Assembly: GCF_054482525.1 (NCBI RefSeq)
Contig: NZ_JBTHVG010000003.1
Source: a plasmid
DNA: 64,000 nucleotides
Reading direction: 5' to 3' (one strand)
This document shows positions 1,913-24,578 of this stretch, in pieces. A model generated the notes under the pieces. That model ran no database searches and was not told the origin of the DNA. It was given only the letters and a program-made list of their open reading frames with translations. Position 1 is the first letter of the stretch. Every line of letters begins with the position of its first letter. Made by a program: the position numbers and the translations under genes.

Positions 1913-4900
1913 TTATTGTACGTTAAGGTTATTTTTTGACCTGCCTAATTTAGCTGGCCTCAGCCGACGAAACTTACCGGCTGACGGTATCCGGTTGCTT
2001 TTCCATATATAATCGCCTGTCAGATTGATGTGTTCCCAGCCTAGCGGGGACAAATGCGACAGTAGTTGCTCGTTGATCTTCACTCCCTTACGCTTCAGAG
2101 CATCGACAGCTCTTTCCATATAGACGGTATTCCACAGGGATATGGCAGCTGTCAGGAGCGTCAGTCCACTGGCGCGATAGCTCTGATTTTCCGGTTTTCG
2201 GTCCCTGATTTCTCCCAGCCGGTGCATAAATACCGCTCGCGCCAGCGCGTTACGGGCTTCACCTTTATTCAGCCCCGCCTGTACCCGCCGACGCAGTGCA
2301 GGATCGCGGAACCAGTCGAGCATAAACAGAGTTCGTTCAATACGGCCAATTTCTCTCAGTGCTTTGGCCAGCCCGTTTTGCTTGGGGTAGCTGGCAAGCT
2401 TTTTCAGCATCAGGGATGCCGTCACGGTTCCCTGCTTTATCGAGGTTGCCAGACGCAGCACTTCACGCCAGTGAATTTCGATCTCTTTCAGATTCAGGCT
2501 GGTTGTTGATATCAGTGACTGAAGCGCCGGGTACTGGCCTGCTTTCCCTTTGATAAATAGCTTCTTGTCGTGGAGATTCCTGATTCGCGGACAGAACGCA
2601 AATCCCAGCAGATGCATCAGGGCAAAGACATGATCGGTGAAACCCGCTGTATCGGTGTAATGCTCCCTGATTTCCAGGTCGCTTTCGTGGTACAGCAAGC
2701 CATCGAGCACATGGGTTGAATCTCTGACCCGACTGATTATGCAGGTGTAAAACGGGCTGTATTGATCCGAAATATGGGTATAAAACTGACGTCCGGGCTC
2801 CTGCCCGTATTTCGGGTTAACCTGCCCTGCGTAGCGGCCTGATCTGCCTGTTCTGAAATTCTGTCCATCTGATGATGATGTTGTCCCGTCTCCCCAGAAT
2901 GCCGCCAGCGGCCTTTTCCCCTGCGCGTTTACCAGCTCTGCAAGGGCTGCTGAATAGGTTTCGTCGCGGATGTACCATGCCTGAATATCTTCGAGTGATG
3001 ATTTGGTGCTACCGGGGCAGGCTTCCGCCATTTTGGTCAGGCCAAGATTGATGCCATCCGCAAGAATGGTGGTGAGAAGCAGGCGGATATCGGGACGGGT
3101 AATGTCAGTTTTTATATGCGAAAAATGTCGGGTAAACGTCGTCCAGCTGTTTACCTCATCGAGAATTTCCGTGATTTTAGGGCGCGGTAGCATGCTGTAA
3201 ACCAGCTCTGCCAGCGGTGAAACCTGCACCGGAACGCTGTTATCCAGCGGAGAGACTTTTACGCCCCTGTAAGATATTTCCACATCGGGCAGTTCACCAA
3301 GGGCAGCCATGGCATTGACCTCTTCAAGCCTGGACTGAAGCAGGGTCATACGGCTGGTAATGTACTCATGATAATCAGCAGATACGGGAAGTGGCAGCGC
3401 CGGTGTGAGTTTGTCAAAGTCCTTTTCGGGAATGAGGTAATCATCAAAATTTTTGTAGCGGCGTGAACCTTTGACCCAGATGTCCCCGGAACGCAACGCC
3501 CCCTTAAGCTCGCTGAGCGCACAAAATTCATAGTACTGCCGGTCAATACCCGCAGGTGTAATTACCACCTTGCGCCAACTTTCTGGGACAAACTCAAGCG
3601 GCGCGGTGGCCGGAACTTTACGTGACTGCTTCCGGTACATATCCTTGATCACAACCAGCGCATCAGCCAGAGGTTGCGCTGCCGGAGTTGCGATTAACTG
3701 TAAAGCTGACAACATGCGCGGGGCATATTTCCGTAATGTGCTGTATTTCTCGGTAATAATATGCAGCGGGTCAAAATTATTTTTTCTGGCGAGATGGCGT
3801 GTTTCCTCCAGACTGGCGACAAATTCAGGCCATGGGAGTATGTTTTCTATTGCGAGCCATGGATCTCCCCCGGAATCACGGGCATCAGACAGCGCCTGAC
3901 CGACATTGATGTACTGCCTCAGTTTTGACTGGATCAGCTTTCCGGTCTGCTGAAGGCGCTCAGCCTGTGTTCTTTTGGCTTTGCTGAAAAGGCTGTTCAG
4001 CATTCGCTCATGCAACTCAATCACTTCGTCTGTCAGTGTGGCTCTGGCTTCTTCCAGCACGCACACCAGGATCGCATGACGCCGGGCTGCTGAAAATCGG
4101 GTCAAATCCCGGCTGCTCATCTTTCGGCCTTCCCGCGCCAGTTTCAGCAACCGGTTCTGGTGAATGGTACGATCTATACCTTCCGGTAATGCCAGCGATT
4201 CAATGCTACTGAGCCGATCAAGGTGTTGCAGCACGTTCTTACCATTGATTTTACCCGGAGGTTGCAGAAGCCATGTCAGCCTGGAAGACTGATTATCCGA
4301 TGACTCAAGTAAACAATCCAGAGCATCCCTGTGAGCCGGAGTTAACGGGGCATTCAGGGTCTGAAACACGATTTTATCGCCGCCTGCCATGGCCTCAGCA
4401 CAGGAACGCTCCACGACATCAATCGAGGGGATTATCACGTTGTTCTGCCGGAGCCAGACCAGTAGTTCTTCGGCCAGGAGAATACCTTTATCGGTGCGCG
4501 TCGCCATCGGCAGCAGGTGTGTAATACAGTCCTGCTGTATTTTGCCGGTGAACGCTTTTAAGCCAAGATAGCGGTACAGTTCGGTTAAATGTTCGCGTCG
4601 CGTAGTTTCCCTGCCGGAAAGGTAAGCTGGCCAGAGATCCCCGGTAAGTTTTAGCCTGCTGGCGATATGCTTCAGCAGCGCATCAGAGGGAGGGATTTTT
4701 TTATCCGGGGTAAAGCCGACATTTTTCAGATAGCAAAGAAGGACGGCAAAACCAAAACGGCTGGCAGGTTTACGGTGGGCACTGATAAGTGCCAGATCAT
4801 GTTCACTGAAATACGCCATCCGGGTCAGCGTTAACTCTTCGTCCGGTAATGCCAGTAATGATTCTCTTTCCGACAGAGAAAGAATCTGCCTCCTTGCCAT
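1913..4900 (-). CDS. tnpA: Tn3-family transposase TnpA
   Basis: 995-aa ORF, typical Tn3-family transposase length and N-terminus; stop codon lies inside the terminal IR. Confidence 0.9.
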   Translation of the reverse strand: MARRQILSLSERESLLALPDEELTLTRMAYFSEHDLALISAHRKPASRFGFAVLLCYLKNVGFTPDKKIPPSDALLKHIASRLKLTGDLWPAYLSGRETTRREHLTELYRYLGLKAFTGKIQQDCITHLLPMATRTDKGILLAEELLVWLRQNNVIIPSIDVVERSCAEAMAGGDKIVFQTLNAPLTPAHRDALDCLLESSDNQSSRLTWLLQPPGKINGKNVLQHLDRLSSIESLALPEGIDRTIHQNRLLKLAREGRKMSSRDLTRFSAARRHAILVCVLEEARATLTDEVIELHERMLNSLFSKAKRTQAERLQQTGKLIQSKLRQYINVGQALSDARDSGGDPWLAIENILPWPEFVASLEETRHLARKNNFDPLHIITEKYSTLRKYAPRMLSALQLIATPAAQPLADALVVIKDMYRKQSRKVPATAPLEFVPESWRKVVITPAGIDRQYYEFCALSELKGALRSGDIWVKGSRRYKNFDDYLIPEKDFDKLTPALPLPVSADYHEYITSRMTLLQSRLEEVNAMAALGELPDVEISYRGVKVSPLDNSVPVQVSPLAELVYSMLPRPKITEILDEVNSWTTFTRHFSHIKTDITRPDIRLLLTTILADGINLGLTKMAEACPGSTKSSLEDIQAWYIRDETYSAALAELVNAQGKRPLAAFWGDGTTSSSDGQNFRTGRSGRYAGQVNPKYGQEPGRQFYTHISDQYSPFYTCIISRVRDSTHVLDGLLYHESDLEIREHYTDTAGFTDHVFALMHLLGFAFCPRIRNLHDKKLFIKGKAGQYPALQSLISTTSLNLKEIEIHWREVLRLATSIKQGTVTASLMLKKLASYPKQNGLAKALREIGRIERTLFMLDWFRDPALRRRVQAGLNKGEARNALARAVFMHRLGEIRDRKPENQSYRASGLTLLTAAISLWNTVYMERAVDALKRKGVKINEQLLSHLSPLGWEHINLTGDYIWKSNRIPSAGKFRRLRPAKLGRSKNNLNVQ

Positions 4901-9878: not shown

Positions 9879-10709
9879 ATGGAGTGTAAAATGACTCAAA
9901 ACCAGGGTTCTGAGCCAGTACCGGCGAGCCGGACAGGGCAGCTCATCAGCGCCCGGGATATGGCCATGCAGAAATTCGAAGAAGGGATGCGGTTAATCTC
10001 GGAAGCGTCGGAACTGTGCGGTCTCTCTCTCTTCACCAGCAGAATTATGCAGCCCAACGCATTTGGTCTTCCGTCGTCACTGGATCGCACCATCGAGGAG
10101 GGGCGTAAGGAAATTGACCGTAAAACGTGGAAAAGGCTCTTTGAAGAAACAGGTATGGACCGGTACTGGAACCATAAGCAAAAAGAAGCCTTTAACGAAT
10201 CCCTTCGTACGGATCCGCCCGTCGCTTCCCTGGAGATTGTTAAGGGAACATTACAGCATGCACTGGCTAACAGACGAGACACCCTTGCAGAAGGTTTCGT
10301 TGATGTTCTCAACAAGCTTGACCGAAGTTTCAAAAGCAATGCCAGGCAATATACAATGCCAAAAAAGCTTGTTCTTCGGGGGATTTTTCCTGGTGTGAAC
10401 GTGCTGAGGTACAACGGTTTCTCGCAGGACAATCACTTTTGTTTACGCGACTTTGAGAATATTGTATGCATCTGTTCTGATACTCCAACACCTGCAACCG
10501 GCGGTGGGCTGAGTATGGTCGACAGGCTGACGGCCATGAGAAATACAGAATTCACAGGCGAGGTCAGTGATGAGAATGGCTGGCGGTGTCGCCTGTTTGA
10601 GAATGGAAACGTTCATATTTGCATCGACAGTATCTCGCTTCTGAATGCTCTGAACGATCTTATCAGCATATATTTTGCAAACCAGCTTCCGGCCGCAGGA
10701 AAAAAATGA
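9879..10709 (+). CDS. hypothetical protein (plasmid backbone)
   Basis: 276-aa ORF; its stop overlaps the downstream start by 4 nt (ATGA), implying translational coupling. Confidence 0.5.
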   Translation: MECKMTQNQGSEPVPASRTGQLISARDMAMQKFEEGMRLISEASELCGLSLFTSRIMQPNAFGLPSSLDRTIEEGRKEIDRKTWKRLFEETGMDRYWNHKQKEAFNESLRTDPPVASLEIVKGTLQHALANRRDTLAEGFVDVLNKLDRSFKSNARQYTMPKKLVLRGIFPGVNVLRYNGFSQDNHFCLRDFENIVCICSDTPTPATGGGLSMVDRLTAMRNTEFTGEVSDENGWRCRLFENGNVHICIDSISLLNALNDLISIYFANQLPAAGKK

Positions 10710-11911
10710 TGATTGAAAATGATAAAGAAAAAAGCCTGAACGATGCTACCCCGCCAGAGGTGCAGAATGACATCCGCAGCGAATCCACTGAAAAATCAAA
10801 GGAAATGGGTCGTTCAAGGTACTCATCTATCGCGATGATCGATTACTTCAATGCAATCGAACGTCTGTGCAAAGAGAAAGAAATTAACCCGGAAAATATC
10901 GATCTGAGCTTCAAAGTTCACTGGCTCAGAAACGCTGTTGGCGGCTCGTTTGCAAGGTCACAGGAGATGTTCGCGGAGTACCAGAAGTATGTTAAAGAGG
11001 TTCCTGAAGAGGCCCGTTACCTGGATATACCCGATGAGGTAAAGGTTGCACTCGGCGATATTATCTCGTACATCACCTGGCACTACCGTAGAAGCTATAC
11101 CGCAATACAGAATGATAGTGTTAAAAAAGCTGAAGCACGTAGCATGCAGCTGGAGGAGGAGGTAACGCAGCTGTTACAGCGGCTTGAGCAAAGCGCTACC
11201 GATATGGATGAGCTGAAACTTGAGAATCAGGCACTACAGGGTCGATTAGAGATCCGGGACAGTACCGTCAAGGAGTTAGAAACAAGGCTGAATGTTGCCG
11301 AAGCAGAACTCGAAACCTGCCATCACCAGTTAGATAGCACACGGCATGAATTGAGCCTCGCACAGCAGTCAAATGACTCACTCTCCCAGCAACTGGCTGA
11401 ACGTAAAACAGAGATCGCTGGTCACCTTGAATATCAAAAAAAGCTGAACGAAGAGATCAACACGCAGCGTTCTGATAACGCCGGTCTTTCCAGACAATGC
11501 GACCAGTTAAGTCAGACTGTGTCAGATACAAAGGCAGAGAGGGACAGGTTTGAACAGGAATTGATTGCTGCACAGAACCTTTGTACTGAGCTGAAAAGTG
11601 CACTGTCCGGGAAAGAGGGTGACCTGGTGGCGGTGAATGCCGAGCTTACTGAACTCCATAAACTAAACGAGTCGCTGAGCGCCGACCTGAATAAAGTAAC
11701 TTTGGTCAGCCAGGGCTATGAAGCGGAAGTGGCTGAACAAAGCAATGAACTCAAAACGCTCCAGGCCAAAGTAATGAAGCTGGAAGCTACCCTGGAGGCG
11801 GAGAAAACAATCTCAGAATCCCTAAAAGGCACCATTGATACATTAACTGGTGCAATGGCAGGGGGAGGTACTGGAAAGTCAAAACAGCCGCGTAGCAGAA
11901 AAACATCATGA
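10706..11911 (+). CDS. kfrA: KfrA-like coiled-coil DNA-binding protein
   Basis: Start moved from the track to ATG at 10706; N-terminal KfrA-like domain followed by a long heptad-rich acidic coiled-coil and basic tail. Confidence 0.6.
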   Translation: MMIENDKEKSLNDATPPEVQNDIRSESTEKSKEMGRSRYSSIAMIDYFNAIERLCKEKEINPENIDLSFKVHWLRNAVGGSFARSQEMFAEYQKYVKEVPEEARYLDIPDEVKVALGDIISYITWHYRRSYTAIQNDSVKKAEARSMQLEEEVTQLLQRLEQSATDMDELKLENQALQGRLEIRDSTVKELETRLNVAEAELETCHHQLDSTRHELSLAQQSNDSLSQQLAERKTEIAGHLEYQKKLNEEINTQRSDNAGLSRQCDQLSQTVSDTKAERDRFEQELIAAQNLCTELKSALSGKEGDLVAVNAELTELHKLNESLSADLNKVTLVSQGYEAEVAEQSNELKTLQAKVMKLEATLEAEKTISESLKGTIDTLTGAMAGGGTGKSKQPRSRKTS

Positions 11912-11974
11912 TAAATGAAGCCAGGTTGATACACTTCTCTGCATCCCCTGGCACATAAGAACTTCTGCGGACAT

Positions 11975-12178
11975 TCAGCCCGTCCGCAGGAGTTTTCGTC
12001 CTTCAGTCAACAAATGCACTACCTTTTTTGAGTCTCCACTTTCCAGAGCAGAAAACACGTTACCGATTCTACCAACAGCTTGTATCTGAGTGATAACCCC
12101 AGTCTTGTAATCATCTAGGATCCCTGACAGGAAAGCGTTCAGTTTTGTCTGTTCGCTTAGCGAAAGCATGTAGGACAT
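11975..12178 (-). CDS. hypothetical protein
   Basis: 67-aa ORF, last gene of the minus-strand methyltransferase operon. Confidence 0.35.
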   Translation of the reverse strand: MSYMLSLSEQTKLNAFLSGILDDYKTGVITQIQAVGRIGNVFSALESGDSKKVVHLLTEGRKLLRTG

Positions 12179-12190
12179 TTTTTCTCCATT

Positions 12191-13510
12191 TTAAGCAGGT
12201 GTGTCAGTTGAAAGAGGTTTGCGTGATTCTGGAAAATGAGGCAGCACCATAGTTTCAGATGCTGTGGTCGCATCCCAGTGCCACCATCCATAAGGCCCAT
12301 ATTCACGGTTGTAATAATCTTTTTTGAGTTGCTTTCGGGCCAGATAAGCAGGAGTGGCCATACCAAATACTTCCATCGGGAACGGCTTATCGCTTTTTGT
12401 GTCGAGCAGGTAGAAGTCAGGGAACACCTCACTAATACTCGCATCATAACGCATGGGCTTAACGTACTGCCGGTGCTCTGCATCCAGCTTTTCTGCAACA
12501 ACCGCCTCATAGGAGGAGTCCAGAGGTATCCAGTTCTCGCTAACGTGCATCAGCACAATTTGATGAGCTCTTACAGAAGGGCCTCTGCCGGTTACCGCAG
12601 CTGGTGACGTCAACGCAAAGACAACTATTTTCGCCCCGGATTTCCATGCTGCGTACTCCGATGAAAATCGTTTCTTTACGCTATCCCAATGGACTTCTGA
12701 ATTGAAAAAAATCAGCGGTAGCCCCCCAAAATTCCGCAGGGGTAAAAATTTAAGTGGCTTCTCATGCTTTTCAGCATCGTAGCGAGGTAAAACTGACAGG
12801 AGCATGAGACGTTTATCACTCATCGCCTGTGATGAAAGACGCTGAATTTGCGACTGAGCGACAGGTTGTTTCGGGTCAGGTACACCAATGAATAAATGGT
12901 CACCTATGCAGGCTCTGCCGGTACGAATTTGTTTAGCGGTTTCAAGCAGACGATACCGTACCAGTGAATCGTTACGTTTCCCTGCCATTTTCGGGTACCA
13001 GACATTCAGACCAGACTCTGTCCACAAAAGACTAAGCAAGCCCAGGAGGGTCATTGAGGCCTGACCTCCTTCTGGTCGCTGAACATGGGGCAGGGGAGGC
13101 ACTTCTGATTTTTCAGGAGGATCTTTCTCTGTCATACCGATACCGAGCCTTACAGCCATATCACCTTCGGTTGTAATCCGGACCACACCACTCGCATATC
13201 CTTTCAGGCCGGTATGCCGGGCATCAAGGGAGAAGAATACACAGGAAGGATCATGCTCAATGCCCGTGTTAGCGGCTTTGACGAGAATAAAGGCATCACC
13301 GTTCGGTAAAGCACGAACATAAAGTCGCTTTTCTCCTTTTCCACGACATCCGCAGGTGATGACTGATTTTTGACCTGAGGTGTGGTGTGCCTTTTTAAGA
13401 GCCGACTGCCACCCTTTAGCAAACTCATCCTGCGTTTGAAAGTCAGGTGAATACCTTTTGACGTTTGGATCGTCGTCGTAAGCAATCATCACTGCGAATT
13501 TTTGGCTCAT
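12191..13510 (-). CDS. hypothetical protein, 439 aa (methyltransferase-linked)
   Basis: Large ORF co-directional with and downstream of the cytosine methyltransferase; no catalytic motif confidently recognised. Confidence 0.55.
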   Translation of the reverse strand: MSQKFAVMIAYDDDPNVKRYSPDFQTQDEFAKGWQSALKKAHHTSGQKSVITCGCRGKGEKRLYVRALPNGDAFILVKAANTGIEHDPSCVFFSLDARHTGLKGYASGVVRITTEGDMAVRLGIGMTEKDPPEKSEVPPLPHVQRPEGGQASMTLLGLLSLLWTESGLNVWYPKMAGKRNDSLVRYRLLETAKQIRTGRACIGDHLFIGVPDPKQPVAQSQIQRLSSQAMSDKRLMLLSVLPRYDAEKHEKPLKFLPLRNFGGLPLIFFNSEVHWDSVKKRFSSEYAAWKSGAKIVVFALTSPAAVTGRGPSVRAHQIVLMHVSENWIPLDSSYEAVVAEKLDAEHRQYVKPMRYDASISEVFPDFYLLDTKSDKPFPMEVFGMATPAYLARKQLKKDYYNREYGPYGWWHWDATTASETMVLPHFPESRKPLSTDTPA

Positions 13511-13532
13511 AGTAGTCTCCTAAACAGGAAGT

Positions 13533-13700
13533 TTAATATCCCAACCAGAGCAACACTTCCTGAGCGTCATACTGTTCCTTTACGCCCATGTCGCTAAAGA
13601 ATTCTTCGAAATCTGTTTCGGGAACGCAATGCCTGGACAGTTCTTGTAATGCTCGTTCTTTAGATACCGTCTCACCTTCAGCTGATTCGAAATACGTCAT
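13533..13700 (-). CDS. small hypothetical protein (55 aa)
   Basis: ORF below the track's size cut-off, translated by hand as MTYFESAEGETVSKERALQELSRH...; sits between the methyltransferase and the 439-aa gene. Confidence 0.3.
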   Translation of the reverse strand: MTYFESAEGETVSKERALQELSRHCVPETDFEEFFSDMGVKEQYDAQEVLLWLGY

Positions 13701-13760
13701 GGTTGACCTCTGACATTATTACAACAATCTTAAGCATTTAAATTGATGAAGGAGCTCAGG

Positions 13761-15230
13761 TCAGCTGACTTCGTCGTAAAACTGCCGCAAGCGCTGGGAG
13801 GCTGCAAATTCAATTCGTGACTTCAGCAGTTTGGCGACGGCCGCAAAGACATCAACGACCACGGAGTTCCCAAACTGTCTGTAAGCCTGTGTATTGGACA
13901 CAGGGATACGGAAAACACTTTCCCCGGGTTTATCGAAGCCCATTAGCCTGCTGCATTCACGTGGCGTTAGCATGCGTGGCCGACGGTCCATGTTGTATGT
14001 GTTATGGAAATCAGTTTCTCCCAGTTCATGAGACCAGCCCCGATCAATAAGAATTTCAGATCCGTCTTTCATATAGCGGCTTGAGAGGGTTCTGGTGACA
14101 CTATTAACATTGGAAGGATCTACTAGTCCAAAACCAAAACCATTGCCTTTTGCCGCATGTTTCTTTGCATAGTTGTATAAGTACTCCCAGAGTTTAGGGG
14201 AGAGGATGTATTTACTATCTACGCTCGGATCCAGTAAATCTGAGAGAGAAGGGCGCTTGTCCGGATAAAAGTCTTTAATGTCTCTCAGAGTAAAACCGTC
14301 TTTCAGACGTAGGTCGCGGCGAAAACCAATAAGGACGATACGTTCACGGTGCTGGGGTCGGAAATGACGGCCATCGATGACTTTAGGATCATCCGCGCCC
14401 GTGCTTTCGCTGTTTGCGACGTCGTAGCCAAGCTCATCGAGCGTTTTCATGATGATGTTAAAGGTATTACCCTTATCGTGACTCTTCAGATTTTTTACGT
14501 TTTCCAGAACAAAAATTGCAGGTTGTTTTGCCCGGATGATCCTGGCCACATCAAAGAAGAGCGTACCCTGAGTGTCGCACTCGAAACCGTGTTTGCGACC
14601 CATAGAGTTCTTTTTACTGACACCGGCGATGCTGAATGGCTGGCATGGAAATCCCGCAAGAAGAACATCATGATCCGGGATAGAGGCATCGATAAATTTG
14701 TATGCCTCGTCATCAGTAACCTCGGGCCGGTTGCTAAGAGTGATGTCACGGATGTCTGAATTGAAGCGGTGCTCGTTCTCATCGCAATACCAGTTCGCCC
14801 GGTAAGTACGGCTGGAATAAGTATTCCATTCGCTCGTGAAAAGACATTTACCACCGATGGCATCAAATCCGCTTCGCAGTCCACCTATCCCTGCAAACAG
14901 ATCGATAAAGCTAAAGTGCCTGTCCTCATAATCAGCAGGTCGTGAAGGTATTAAAGTCTGTAGATAGCGTCCATCTGCGATACTCAGCTCACAATGCTCA
15001 GGTATGCATGTAACCTGACGTTTAAGGGATGCACGGGACCAATTACTGCCATTTTCATCATTTAATACCTGAGCCAGATATTTCAGGTCATAAATGGTCG
15101 AAGCTGTTAACAAAGTTTTGTGGATCAGAGATGGTGTTTTATCCACATCATTCAGGTCTGTCTCAAGATCATGAGTGTAACGTTTCATCCAAACTCTCTC
15201 AGGAATAATATCTTTGAGATAGATTAACAC
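13761..15230 (-). CDS. DNA cytosine-5 methyltransferase, Dcm/M.EcoRII-like
   Basis: Motif I FAGIGG, motif IV PCQPFS, motif [12 protein letters not shown]; N-terminal extension as in Dcm; true start may be an internal Met. Confidence 0.85.
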
Positions 15231-15399
15231 GCTTAATTTGGATTATTTTTTGGTTCAGGTTCTAAATTTATTGTGATTATTCTGCCTTTAAGTTGCAAAA
15301 AGATTGGTTTTAAGCCCGCCCATGAAATAATGACTTGTTAAAATACTGCCTGTAAATAGGCTTGTGGATACATGTCTGTACTCAACAAATCAAGGTGAA

Positions 15400-15918
15400 A
15401 TGATGTTTTTTTTAACAAAGTTACTTTTGCCCATCATGATTGTTGTATTCCCAGTGGCGTCCTGGGGGAACTCAACAACTTTTGAGGCAAAGGTGGTTAA
15501 GATTGTTGACGGTGACACCATAACTGCGTTGGATGCTCAAAACACAACCATCAAAATACGGATGTATGGTATAGACGCTCCTGAATCTAAACAGGCTTTT
15601 GGCCAAAAAGCAAAACAGGCCTTAACCACAGCTATAGCAACTAAAATCGTTACCGTGATAGACCATGGTACGGATATCTATGGCCGTATGTTAGGTACCA
15701 TCTGGTTAGATGGATATGATATCAATGCCTCTATGGTGGACAGTGGATATGCGTGGGTTTATCGGTTCGAAGATAACGCCATTGTCCCTGGCTATATCAA
15801 ATATGAATCCGCAGCACAAAAGGAGGCAAAAGGGTTATGGGCAGACACCAACCCTGTCCCACCATGGCAGTGGAGACAGGCAAACGAAAAGCCCAGAAAG
15901 GTGAAAGAGAAGAAATAA
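15400..15918 (+). CDS. nuc: secreted thermonuclease (staphylococcal-nuclease fold)
   Basis: Start moved to ATG at 15400 after an AAGGTGA ribosome-binding site; signal peptide then SNase-like core (DGDT, GIDAPE motifs). Confidence 0.75.
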   Translation: MMFFLTKLLLPIMIVVFPVASWGNSTTFEAKVVKIVDGDTITALDAQNTTIKIRMYGIDAPESKQAFGQKAKQALTTAIATKIVTVIDHGTDIYGRMLGTIWLDGYDINASMVDSGYAWVYRFEDNAIVPGYIKYESAAQKEAKGLWADTNPVPPWQWRQANEKPRKVKEKK

Positions 15919-15920
15919 CC

Positions 15921-16817
15921 ATGATGAAAGAGCCTCATCCGTTACTTCAGTTGGTACTAAACGATTCCGGTCGTCTAACCATGCCTGTTTATTATAGAGA
16001 TCAACAGTATTGCCCGACTTGCCTTACAAAGGTGTTGAAGAGTGAGGATGGAAGTTTGGCGCACCTCGGGGAAATAAATCAAAATACATGTAGACCTTCT
16101 ATTTCAGTAGTTGTGACAAAAGCAATTATTGAAATGTTATGTGACGGGGAAAAAATATATGTAAATCCAATACGACACCGAGGCCGGGTGCTGGCACCCT
16201 CAGTAATTTTTTCTCCCGACACTCACACTTTCAAACCGTTTATAAATACAGACTATCAGCCTGTGGGAGCAAACTGGAAAAGTGAAAAGGGATATAAACT
16301 CGGTCTGTTTTATCTCAAAGATCGAGCCAACTCTATCAATAAAGAGGAATTTGATTTCATTGCCGTTATAGACCCTGAGGCAATGCAGAAAGAATTTATT
16401 TCGGCCTGGTCTGAGGTTGATGAAAAAAATCCATTGGAAACGCTGAAGCAGATCTTACGATCTAAAAACAACTCTTCTTTATGGGTAAAATGGCCTGGCA
16501 AAATTGAGCATGCGCAAAAAGGAAATTACAACGAAAATTACTGGTTCGATTATCAATCTGATAATCAGGAAGTGAACTGTACGGTCTCTGTTGTAGGTAT
16601 CGAAGGTAACAGTTCCGGTGAGACAATTTATAGATTGCAAACTTTGCTAAAGCGTAAGCTCAATGAATATCAACTGGTTCGGTCTTTAGGTACTATTATG
16701 CTTCTTGATAATACCGGGAATATGATTCCATCAAACCATCCTTATTTTGAAGTCATCTCAAAAGCATGTATAAATGGAGTGCGTGACTTTGTTCGTCAAA
16801 ACCCGTGGGTAGTCTGA
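15921..16817 (+). CDS. hypothetical protein, 298 aa, coupled to nuc
   Basis: Start at ATG 15921, 3 nt after the nuc stop; contains a CPTC motif; no family recognised. Confidence 0.5.
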   Translation: MMKEPHPLLQLVLNDSGRLTMPVYYRDQQYCPTCLTKVLKSEDGSLAHLGEINQNTCRPSISVVVTKAIIEMLCDGEKIYVNPIRHRGRVLAPSVIFSPDTHTFKPFINTDYQPVGANWKSEKGYKLGLFYLKDRANSINKEEFDFIAVIDPEAMQKEFISAWSEVDEKNPLETLKQILRSKNNSSLWVKWPGKIEHAQKGNYNENYWFDYQSDNQEVNCTVSVVGIEGNSSGETIYRLQTLLKRKLNEYQLVRSLGTIMLLDNTGNMIPSNHPYFEVISKACINGVRDFVRQNPWVV

Positions 16818-23936: not shown

Positions 23937-24434
23937 TTAGCCGTTTCGACGCGCATAAACGGAGTGGGTGTACGGAATTACAGCTTGAATGGTTTCGGTT
24001 GAGACAAGCTCGAATTCTGTTTCGTTGAGCATTGGGAAGAAGGCGTCACCCTCGAAGGTTTGATGTACCTCAGATAGAAACACGCCGTGGGCGTGAGGTA
24101 GTGCCAGAGTGTATATCTCAGCTCCGCCCGCGACGTAGAGTTCATTGCCGAGTTCGGATGCCAAAGCGATAGCGTGCGACAGCGTTGAAACAACTACGCA
24201 GCCAGTGGCGCGGTAGTTAGCTTGGCGTGAGATTACCAATGTGTGACGGTTCGGTAGAGGCTTGCCGATAGACTCAAAGGTCTTTCGCCCCATGACAACG
24301 ACTTTTCCCTCAGTGAGTCTGCGAAAAATCTTCTGCTCACCCGGAATTTTCCAGGGGATATTAGGACCATTGCCAATAACCCGATTGGCTCCCATCGCAG
24401 CAACGAGATAAATGCGTACTGATTCCGAGTTCAT
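23937..24434 (-). CDS. dfrA12: trimethoprim-resistant dihydrofolate reductase DfrA12
   Basis: 165-aa ORF matching the DfrA12 sequence as recalled; first cassette next to attI1. Confidence 0.9.
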   Translation of the reverse strand: MNSESVRIYLVAAMGANRVIGNGPNIPWKIPGEQKIFRRLTEGKVVVMGRKTFESIGKPLPNRHTLVISRQANYRATGCVVVSTLSHAIALASELGNELYVAGGAEIYTLALPHAHGVFLSEVHQTFEGDAFFPMLNETEFELVSTETIQAVIPYTHSVYARRNG

Positions 24435-24578
24435 ATGGCTAACTTTGTTTTAGGGCGACTGCCCTGCTGCGTAACATCGTTGCTGCTCCATAACATCAAA
24501 CATCGACCCACGGCGTAACGCGCTTGCTGCTTGGATGCCCGAGGCATAGACTGTACAAAAAAACAGTCATAACAAGCC
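24435..24578. promoter_or_regulatory. attI1 and cassette promoter region of a class 1 integron
   Basis: Position between the intI1 start and the first cassette; inferred, not motif-checked. Confidence 0.45.

Follow-up and report, generated by a model that had tools for sequence, protein, structure and literature searches.

An orphan Dcm-type methylase beside an independent DUF1173 protein: a conserved stretch of the IncHI plasmid backbone that is probably not a restriction-modification module

We analysed a stretch of 64,000 nucleotides (nt) of an IncHI2 plasmid (RefSeq assembly GCF_054482525.1, contig NZ_JBTHVG010000003.1; the window hereafter), in which the block 11975-15230 is made up of four co-directional genes on the minus strand. 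These genes encode, in the order of transcription, a cytosine-C5 methylase, an acidic protein of 55 amino acids (aa), a 439-aa protein that is a full-length member of the family DUF1173 and a basic protein of 67 aa. We consider it probable that the four genes represent a conserved stretch of the IncHI backbone, where an orphan protective methylase stands beside independent backbone or establishment genes, and that they do not constitute a restriction-modification system. A first-pass annotation, made from the sequence alone, had correctly recognized the methylase as Dcm-like and had correctly described the 55-aa, 439-aa and 67-aa genes that follow it on the same strand with short gaps. It had proposed that the genes form a restriction-like or anti-restriction module with the 439-aa protein as a candidate cognate nuclease or other effector, and had named a merely hitchhiking backbone gene as the alternative. 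The genes are the following:

13761-15230, minus strand: C5 methylase, longest open reading frame (ORF), 489 aa from the GTG at 15230
13761-15188, minus strand: the same methylase from the favoured ATG start at 15188, 475 aa
13533-13700, minus strand: 55-aa acidic mini-protein, family phrog_25588
12191-13510, minus strand: DUF1173 (PF06666) protein, 439 aa, with an N-terminal zinc motif, a middle region and a PD-(D/E)XK-like C-terminal domain
11975-12178, minus strand: 67-aa basic protein, lineage-restricted

The block is judged not to be a restriction-modification system because DUF1173 genes mostly occur without a methylase, because the related IncHI-type Klebsiella plasmid pKAM644_1 carries DUF1173 paired with a thermonuclease gene and no methylase, and because three elements with a dead methylase retain an intact DUF1173 gene. 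The DUF1173 family is large (2,534 clusters at 50% identity) and was recovered from 3,401 of 72,556 plasmid records as well as from integrative and conjugative elements (ICEs). Three alignments of the family (A1-A3) and a profile search were used, and the genome loci were scanned with the closer alignment subset A2. When the DUF1173 loci of 80 species representatives, with flanks of 10 kb, were searched with the methylase of the window (phmmer), a C5 methylase was found in one locus, where the match was weak (47 bits) and located 5 kb away. A search with motif expressions recovered no amino- or C5-methylase within 5 kb of DUF1173 in 83 loci, and no methylase adjoined DUF1173 in seven sampled plasmids (from Klebsiella, Pseudomonas, Citrobacter, Acinetobacter, Xanthomonas, Rhizobium and Burkholderia). 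The neighbours in the sampled plasmids were genes for replication, partition, relaxase or type IV coupling protein, the type IV secretion system (T4SS), umuDC or recombinases. Clustering of the neighbours in the 83 loci likewise yielded no universal partner and only plasmid or ICE housekeeping genes recurred: ParA (16 loci), ParB (15 loci), UmuC (13 loci), serine recombinases (at least 12 loci) and an XRE-type regulator, besides relaxase and T4SS genes. By these sequence comparisons, DUF1173 belongs to conjugative plasmids and ICEs as an autonomous protein. The proposal of a cognate nuclease is not supported by them, and the hitchhiking alternative is favoured by the synteny within IncHI and by the solitary occurrence of DUF1173 elsewhere.

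The pair of methylase and DUF1173 was kept only in IncHI1/HI2-like backbones, in which the whole block is syntenic and is flanked by an approximately 315-aa gene and an SNase gene on one side and by a coiled-coil gene and a DUF4942 gene on the other. Co-occurrence across plasmids, which the first-pass annotation had made one touchstone of its proposal, holds within these backbones and is lost outside them. The DUF1173 proteins of these relatives were 81% (pHCM1, IncHI1), 82% (a Photorhabdus tasmaniensis contig) and 53-64% (metagenomic contigs) identical to that of the window, and the ORFs of the methylase and the 55-aa protein overlapped or lay 12 nt apart in relatives. In pKAM644_1 (MOBH, IncFIB/HI1B), the SNase and DUF1173 genes are arranged divergently, and 45 kb of sequence contain no methylase. 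From this it would seem that the methylase and 55-aa genes make up a unit that was inserted into, or lost from, an older divergent SNase/DUF1173 arrangement. The adjacency of methylase and DUF1173 would then be explained by the history of the backbone and not by function, with the apparent unit of methylase and 55-aa gene lying between the members of the older pair. The gene psiA (plasmid SOS inhibition) was found 2 kb downstream of, and co-directional with, the DUF1173 gene of pKAM644_1 (locus L102, 19014-22871), a position that hints at a leading or establishment region. Other local arrangements of DUF1173 involved recombinases: in 17 of the 80 loci (Rhodocyclales, Aquabacterium and similar) a 314-324-aa ORF with an N-terminal helix-turn-helix and a weak Phage_integrase match (Pfam i-E 0.003; XerC E 7e-4) abuts or overlaps the DUF1173 start (L050, 8893-9837; L079, 8988-9962), and in Pantoea loci a serine recombinase gene is found directly upstream instead.

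Nature has supplied several methylase knock-outs. In the Photorhabdus element the methylase has lost residues 158-451, including the PCQ and ENV motifs, while the 55-aa, DUF1173 and 67-aa genes are intact; in the Salmonella plasmid p35161-1 an ISEc8 copy resides inside the methylase gene and in a Shigella plasmid methylase residues 1-266 are missing, both with an intact DUF1173 gene. As read from their sequences, these three elements argue against a toxic, methylation-sensitive nuclease. A laboratory deletion has been described as well: deletion 13 of plasmid R27 removes R0150-R0157, which include the parB-type nuclease R0153, the methylase R0154, R0155, the DUF1173 gene R0156 and R0157 (PMC4853401, Table S2), and was readily obtained; in E. 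coli MG1655 it did not make the plasmid significantly less stable (PMC4853401).

The methylase itself is ordinary and is one more orphan Dcm-type enzyme. It matches PF00145 over model positions 1-322 of 324 (E 6e-75) and NCBIfam NF007772 with 846 bits (curated cutoff 710), it contains the Dcm-type N-terminal domain DNA_meth_N (PF18284, E 6.5e-6) and its translation displays the C5 catalytic motifs I (FxGxG), IV (PCQ), VI (ENV), VIII (QxRxR), IX and X (GN, in GNSVVV). The best PADLOC model was that of an orphan methylase (PDLC03733, E 3e-206). Identity amounted to 72% with the IncHI1 enzyme and to 66% with other plasmid-borne methylases, one of which is annotated as 'modification methylase EcoRII'; the R27 homologue R0154 has been recorded as 66.7% identical to M.EcoRII. 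By sequence, then, the enzyme is a member of the Dcm/EcoRII subfamily of C5 methylases, and specificity for CCWGG is likely because of the approximately 66% identity to M.EcoRII. The methylase most likely marks CCWGG on the plasmid and in the host, which, by analogy with another plasmid dcm gene, would shield the plasmid from restriction by the EcoRII family upon entry into new cells and would also blunt post-segregational killing by such systems. The analogy is with the dcm gene of plasmid pKAZ3, which conferred approximately 2,700-fold protection from EcoRII, and with chromosomal Dcm, which shields all conjugating plasmids tested from EcoRII (PMC11602122); the same role would be expected here. 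The IncHI methylase shares its subfamily with E. coli Dcm, the IncN M.EcoRII and pKAZ3 dcm, and has no adjacent restriction gene. It differs from chromosomal dcm in that no vsr gene follows and from IncN M.EcoRII in that the EcoRII endonuclease partner is lacking. In R27 at the transfer-permissive temperature of 25 C, expression of the methylase R0154 was 4.7-fold and that of the divergent nuclease R0153 2.9-fold higher, and the genes downstream of the methylase were not listed as changed (PMC7366339).

The profile searches and structure predictions that had been suggested for the 439-aa and 55-aa proteins assigned the former to DUF1173 (model pLDDT, the predicted local distance difference test, 93.5) and the latter to phrog_25588 (pLDDT 91). 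The three genes had been called uncharacterised; this does not apply to the 439-aa gene, which is annotated as DUF1173 in RefSeq (here PF06666, E 5.7e-39, residues 26-393), and stands for the 55-aa and 67-aa genes in so far as these have no Pfam family. The DUF1173 protein is basic (isoelectric point, pI, 9.1) and residues C53, C55, H86, C90, K351 and W412 are invariant in all 149 family representatives that were counted. The first four make up a CxC...Hx3C zinc motif that fits the published CxCxnHx3-5C. The only literature on DUF1173 that we found is a 2010 fold-recognition study (Laganeckas, Margelevicius, Venclovas, NAR 2011; PMC3045609), which predicted for the family a zinc motif near the N-terminus (CxCxnHx3-5C) and, towards the C-terminus, a domain related to PD-(D/E)XK nucleases but 'lacking the active-site signature'. 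The 439-aa protein conforms to that description with the same zinc motif and a nuclease-like C-terminal domain. What our comparison adds is that the acidic positions and K351 are conserved across the 149 representatives and that the one residue missing from (D/E)xK is its canonical lysine: an acidic residue occupies position 335 in 100%, D370 is kept in 98%, E380 in 86% and D365 in 84%, whereas the position of the canonical lysine (382) is F in the window and F, Y or W in 125 of the 149. The full signature E...(P)D...(D/E)xK is therefore absent from the 439-aa protein and from most of the family, with the acidic residues kept and the lysine lost. D365 or E380 is also lost in approximately 15% of the representatives.

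An AlphaFold2 model of DUF1173, built with the 149 sequences, was of high confidence (pLDDT 93.5, predicted template modelling score 0.92). The PD-(D/E)XK-like domain extends from about 294 to 413 and includes E335, K351, P364-D365, D370 and E380-V-F382. In the model, E335 opens helix 333-344, P364-D365 directly precedes strand 366-368 and E380-V-F382 belongs to strand 377-382; helix 387-404 and strand 410-413 come next. E335, D365 and E380 would in this way map to elements alpha1, beta2 and beta3, the places of the catalytic residues in PD-(D/E)XK proteins, and K351, which ends the preceding strand, should by its topology adjoin D365 and might substitute for the lysine. The first-pass annotation had seen no PD-(D/E)xK or HNH motif with confidence; the domain keeps E335, D365 and E380 and lacks the canonical lysine. 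Foldseek and sequence-profile comparison with the PDB gave nothing significant for DUF1173, and no solved relative. The PD-(D/E)XK proteins listed in a further comparison were RAP domains, I-Bth0305I, XisH, Vsr, TnsA, Sen34, Bax1, VRR-NUC and Hjc, and the OB (oligonucleotide/oligosaccharide-binding) folds listed were Stn1, Ten1, RPA and the N-terminal domain of AsnRS. Only family members were recovered from AFDB50, and NCBIfam and PHROGs returned no match. In PADLOC, residues 317-403 match the C-terminal 87 of the 1,221 positions of the candidate model PDC-S68 (E 8e-5), a weak and partial match that denotes a shared domain and not membership; because of it, a similar domain appears to be used in a large candidate defence protein. 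Assignment of the block to a known defence system was not favoured, as PADLOC gave nothing for DUF1173 beyond this match. We infer that DUF1173 would bind, and probably cut or nick, a particular DNA structure independently of cytosine methylation, and that it would do so while the plasmid is being established, recombined or processed.

Both small ORFs have conserved counterparts in IncHI1, in the Photorhabdus element and in metagenomic relatives, where the proportion of nonsynonymous differences (pN approximately 0.21-0.24, and 0.21-0.35 over four comparisons of the 55-aa ORF) was below that of synonymous differences (pS 0.65-0.92). The dN/dS ratio, where computable, was 0.17 for the 55-aa gene and approximately 0.13 for the 67-aa gene. 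Judged by their sequence evolution, both ORFs are genuine genes. The 55-aa protein has a net charge of -9 (pI 4.2), and its only match was to phrog_25588, over the full length (E 2e-24); no Pfam match appeared even at E 10, and a word-indexed homologue search gave almost only near-identical copies. Its AlphaFold2 model (pLDDT 91) is a compact alpha/beta mini-fold. The family is conserved in all IncHI-like loci, and in Pectobacterium phage PhiM1 and approximately 30 related Autographiviridae a homologue opens the left end of the genome as gene 01 (nt 785-943 in PhiM1). Further homologues are part of small arrays of co-directional ORFs on Burkholderia and Pectobacterium plasmids (L100, ~4001-4153; L101, 3989-4153), and on an Enterobacter MOBF plasmid a homologue (L099, 5001-5165) is located 25 nt after the gene of a 183-aa membrane-anchored, Mrr_cat-like 'restriction endonuclease' (L099, 4424-4975), downstream of MobF. 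The slot behind the relaxase is occupied by the Mrr_cat-like nuclease on the Enterobacter plasmid and by DUF1173 on a Xanthomonas plasmid (L095). A relationship between the two proteins was considered and rejected (hhalign probability 0.5%). The strong negative charge and the early-gene position are traits of DNA mimics, and both are present in the 55-aa family. Like T7 Ocr (gp0.3) and ArdA the protein is very acidic, its phage homologue holds the first-gene place like that of T7 gene 0.3 and its plasmid homologues are found in arrays of small genes; unlike them, it is much smaller and shows no sequence similarity to them (no Pfam match). The 55-aa protein is probably an early-acting factor that counters some host function, be it in anti-defence or in takeover.

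The basic 67-aa protein (pI 9.2) is confined to IncHI2, IncHI1 and a Photorhabdus element and gave no match in Pfam, PHROG, NCBIfam or PADLOC. It is 60-70% identical in loci L002 and L086, and in L087-L091 its gene is absent or replaced by another ORF.

Several other explanations of the block were weighed. The one closest to the initial proposal is a true restriction-modification-like or toxin-immunity module, in which a DUF1173 nuclease attacks DNA that lacks the methylase mark, or is held in check by the acidic 55-aa protein, and the methylase protects plasmid and host. The resemblance to a type II system such as EcoRII is plain, as a C5 methylase gene has beside it, co-directional and closely spaced, a gene whose product resembles restriction endonucleases in its fold; moreover, the fold keeps its acidic triad, the gene order is kept across IncHI-like elements down to 53% identity, a very acidic mini-protein precedes a basic nuclease-like protein and the C-terminus of the latter has the weak PDC-S68 match (E 8e-5). 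Nevertheless, DUF1173 orthologues with the same conserved residues overwhelmingly lack a nearby methylase and remain intact in the three natural methylase knock-outs. Restriction enzymes evolve fast, whereas DUF1173 is a large, broadly conserved family that diverges slowly, like a backbone gene. In addition, phages and other plasmids carry members of the 55-aa family in the absence of DUF1173, and outside IncHI DUF1173 is found without the 55-aa gene. A cognate restriction-modification pair was rejected on co-occurrence, on the contexts in the sampled plasmids and on the natural knock-outs, and we regard the module as a whole as very unlikely. Still further from what the data support is an analogue of E. 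coli dcm-vsr, with DUF1173 as a Vsr-like nickase that repairs the T:G mismatches arising from deaminated 5-methylcytosines of the neighbouring methylase: a zinc-binding protein whose PD-(D/E)XK-like fold is non-canonical does come after a Dcm-type methylase, but DUF1173 showed neither membership of Vsr by sequence nor association with C5 methylases, which leaves this explanation extremely improbable. The block might also be an accessory module for stability or multimer resolution comparable to RK2 parCBA (a resolvase and an SNase-like ParB nuclease), with DUF1173 aiding recombination. In favour of this are the SNase/ParB-like nuclease next to DUF1173 in plasmids of IncHI and Klebsiella and in some of Pseudomonas, the position directly downstream of serine recombinases (Pantoea) or of the weakly tyrosine-recombinase-like ORF (17/80 loci) and the frequent vicinity of parA/parB. 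The unimpaired stability of R27 deletion 13 (PMC4853401) speaks against it, as do the occurrence of the recombinase link in a minority of loci and the weak assignment of the tyrosine recombinase (Pfam i-E 0.003), and we consider it unlikely.

Two more explanations concern what DUF1173 does. It could be catalytically inert, a zinc-knuckle DNA-binding or regulatory protein that reuses the nuclease fold, with its operon neighbours as unrelated cargo. This would agree with the verdict of the 2010 study on the active site (PMC3045609), with the aromatic residue at the lysine position, with the loss of D365 or E380 in some representatives and with source records that label some homologues as CopG/Arc/MetJ-type regulators. 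These labels are not backed by any Pfam match, however, and the acidic residue at 335, D365, D370, E380 and the invariant K351 are retained on the catalytic elements; metal binding or catalysis is favoured because conservation of this kind is hard to explain otherwise, so that inertness seems to us rather unlikely, though less so than the explanations above. The opposite view, that DUF1173 is an active non-canonical PD-(D/E)XK nuclease (E335/D365/E380, a relocated K351 and a Cys2-His-Cys knuckle) that in IncHI has been wired together with the orphan methylase and the acidic protein into an anti-restriction or establishment operon, is put forward tentatively, as a possibility somewhat better placed than inertness.

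Several observations weigh against the preferred reading of the block as an orphan methylase beside independent backbone genes. The order methylase, 55-aa gene, DUF1173 persists within the IncHI lineage down to 53% DUF1173 identity, and this conservation, together with overlapping stop and start codons in some relatives, makes co-transcription and hence some functional link possible. The natural knock-outs are not strict proof of a harmless DUF1173, because a Dcm encoded on the chromosome could stand in for the lost enzyme in the Salmonella and Shigella hosts (such a Dcm is widespread in E. coli isolates; PMC11602122) and because the insertion sequence may silence the downstream genes. R27 deletion 13 demonstrates dispensability in the laboratory and gives no positive function. 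The CCWGG specificity of the methylase is a prediction from similarity, the early action of the 55-aa protein is suggested by its charge and gene position only, and for DUF1173, where fold and conservation are in hand, DNA binding or cutting and the substrate are predicted from the model, against a published judgement that the active-site signature is lacking (PMC3045609).

In the window, the methylase, 55-aa, DUF1173 and 67-aa genes are separated by gaps of 60, 22 and 12 nt, and Shine-Dalgarno-like sequences (GAGG, AGGAG and GGAG) precede the start codons of the three downstream genes. The ATG at 15188, which is preceded by GAGAG, is favoured as the methylase start because it is used in RefSeq and because relatives align from about residue 12-19 of the 489-aa form; to judge by these alignments, the GTG-start ORF probably overstates the protein. 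The block is bordered by two divergent and two convergent genes, and a consensus scan gave some candidate signals:

15403-15918, plus strand: thermonuclease (SNase/RK2 ParB-like) gene, divergent from the operon; annotated in RefSeq, with NCBIfam EcnA and NucI matches
15921-16817, plus strand: gene of a 298-aa protein, following the thermonuclease gene
9891-10709, plus strand: DUF4942 gene, convergent with the operon
10706-11911, plus strand: approximately 400-aa coiled-coil gene, convergent with the operon; weak SMC/LmuB/JetC-type coiled-coil matches
15327-15356, minus strand: sigma-70 promoter-like site (TTTACA-18-CATTAT), 5' of the methylase, from the consensus scan
13715-13742, minus strand: predicted internal promoter-like site (TTTAAA-16-AATAAT, extended TG), in the 60-nt gap between the methylase and 55-aa genes
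11965-11989, minus strand: terminator-like hairpin (9 bp stem, 6 GC), overlapping the 67-aa gene stop, with a weak T-run

The upstream promoter-like site is situated in the AT-rich divergent intergenic region that the methylase and thermonuclease genes have in common, and the hairpin faces the convergent coiled-coil gene. The promoter-like sites and the hairpin are weak evidence because the number of sites was not above that expected from shuffled sequence, and Rfam and repeat scans of the block region returned nothing relevant. The thermonuclease and 298-aa genes are conserved in all IncHI-like loci. The former stays beside DUF1173 where the methylase is absent (Klebsiella plasmids), and in pKAM644_1 a phospholipase-D-family gene follows the SNase gene instead of the latter, which has no Pfam, NCBIfam, PHROG or PADLOC family. 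The DUF4942 and coiled-coil pair kept its synteny with the operon in all IncHI-like relatives that were examined (L086-L091). For the DUF4942 protein, the match to phrog_38825 was strong, and that to a phage methyltransferase PHROG reached only E 0.036.

At least 80% of the region 11500-15700 was found in one place in 1,116 plasmid records, and 1,129 records matched at 99% identity or more. Most of the plasmids that carry the block are conjugative (MOBH) ones from Escherichia, Salmonella and Enterobacter. According to the RefSeq annotation the block has the pco copper-resistance genes on one side and a resistance region on the other, and the Tra1 transfer genes occupy 44-64 kb of the window. 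The resistance region contains an Rfam AAC_AAD_leader / attI site at 24411-24489 (minus strand, 71 bits), a mark of a class 1 integron.

IncHI1 and IncHI2 plasmids are among the main vehicles of multidrug, mcr and metal resistance, and it is of practical use to know which of their backbone genes help them across restriction barriers. The module as such is already annotated in more than 1,100 plasmids, and the role of DUF1173 is the sole part of it that is of wider interest. The family combines a confidently predicted structure with the lack of a solved relative and, in the model, a constellation of residues that resembles a metal-binding site. The 55-aa family, with its homologue as the first gene of PhiM1-like phages, could be put through an anti-defence screen as a candidate at little cost. 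Deciding whether DUF1173 is a nuclease, and on which substrate, would fill a gap in the parts list of conjugative elements. If the protein is indeed an active nuclease, this would amount to a previously unrecognised and very widespread function of conjugative plasmids and ICEs, for example the processing or protection of incoming DNA during establishment, or an attack on competing elements.

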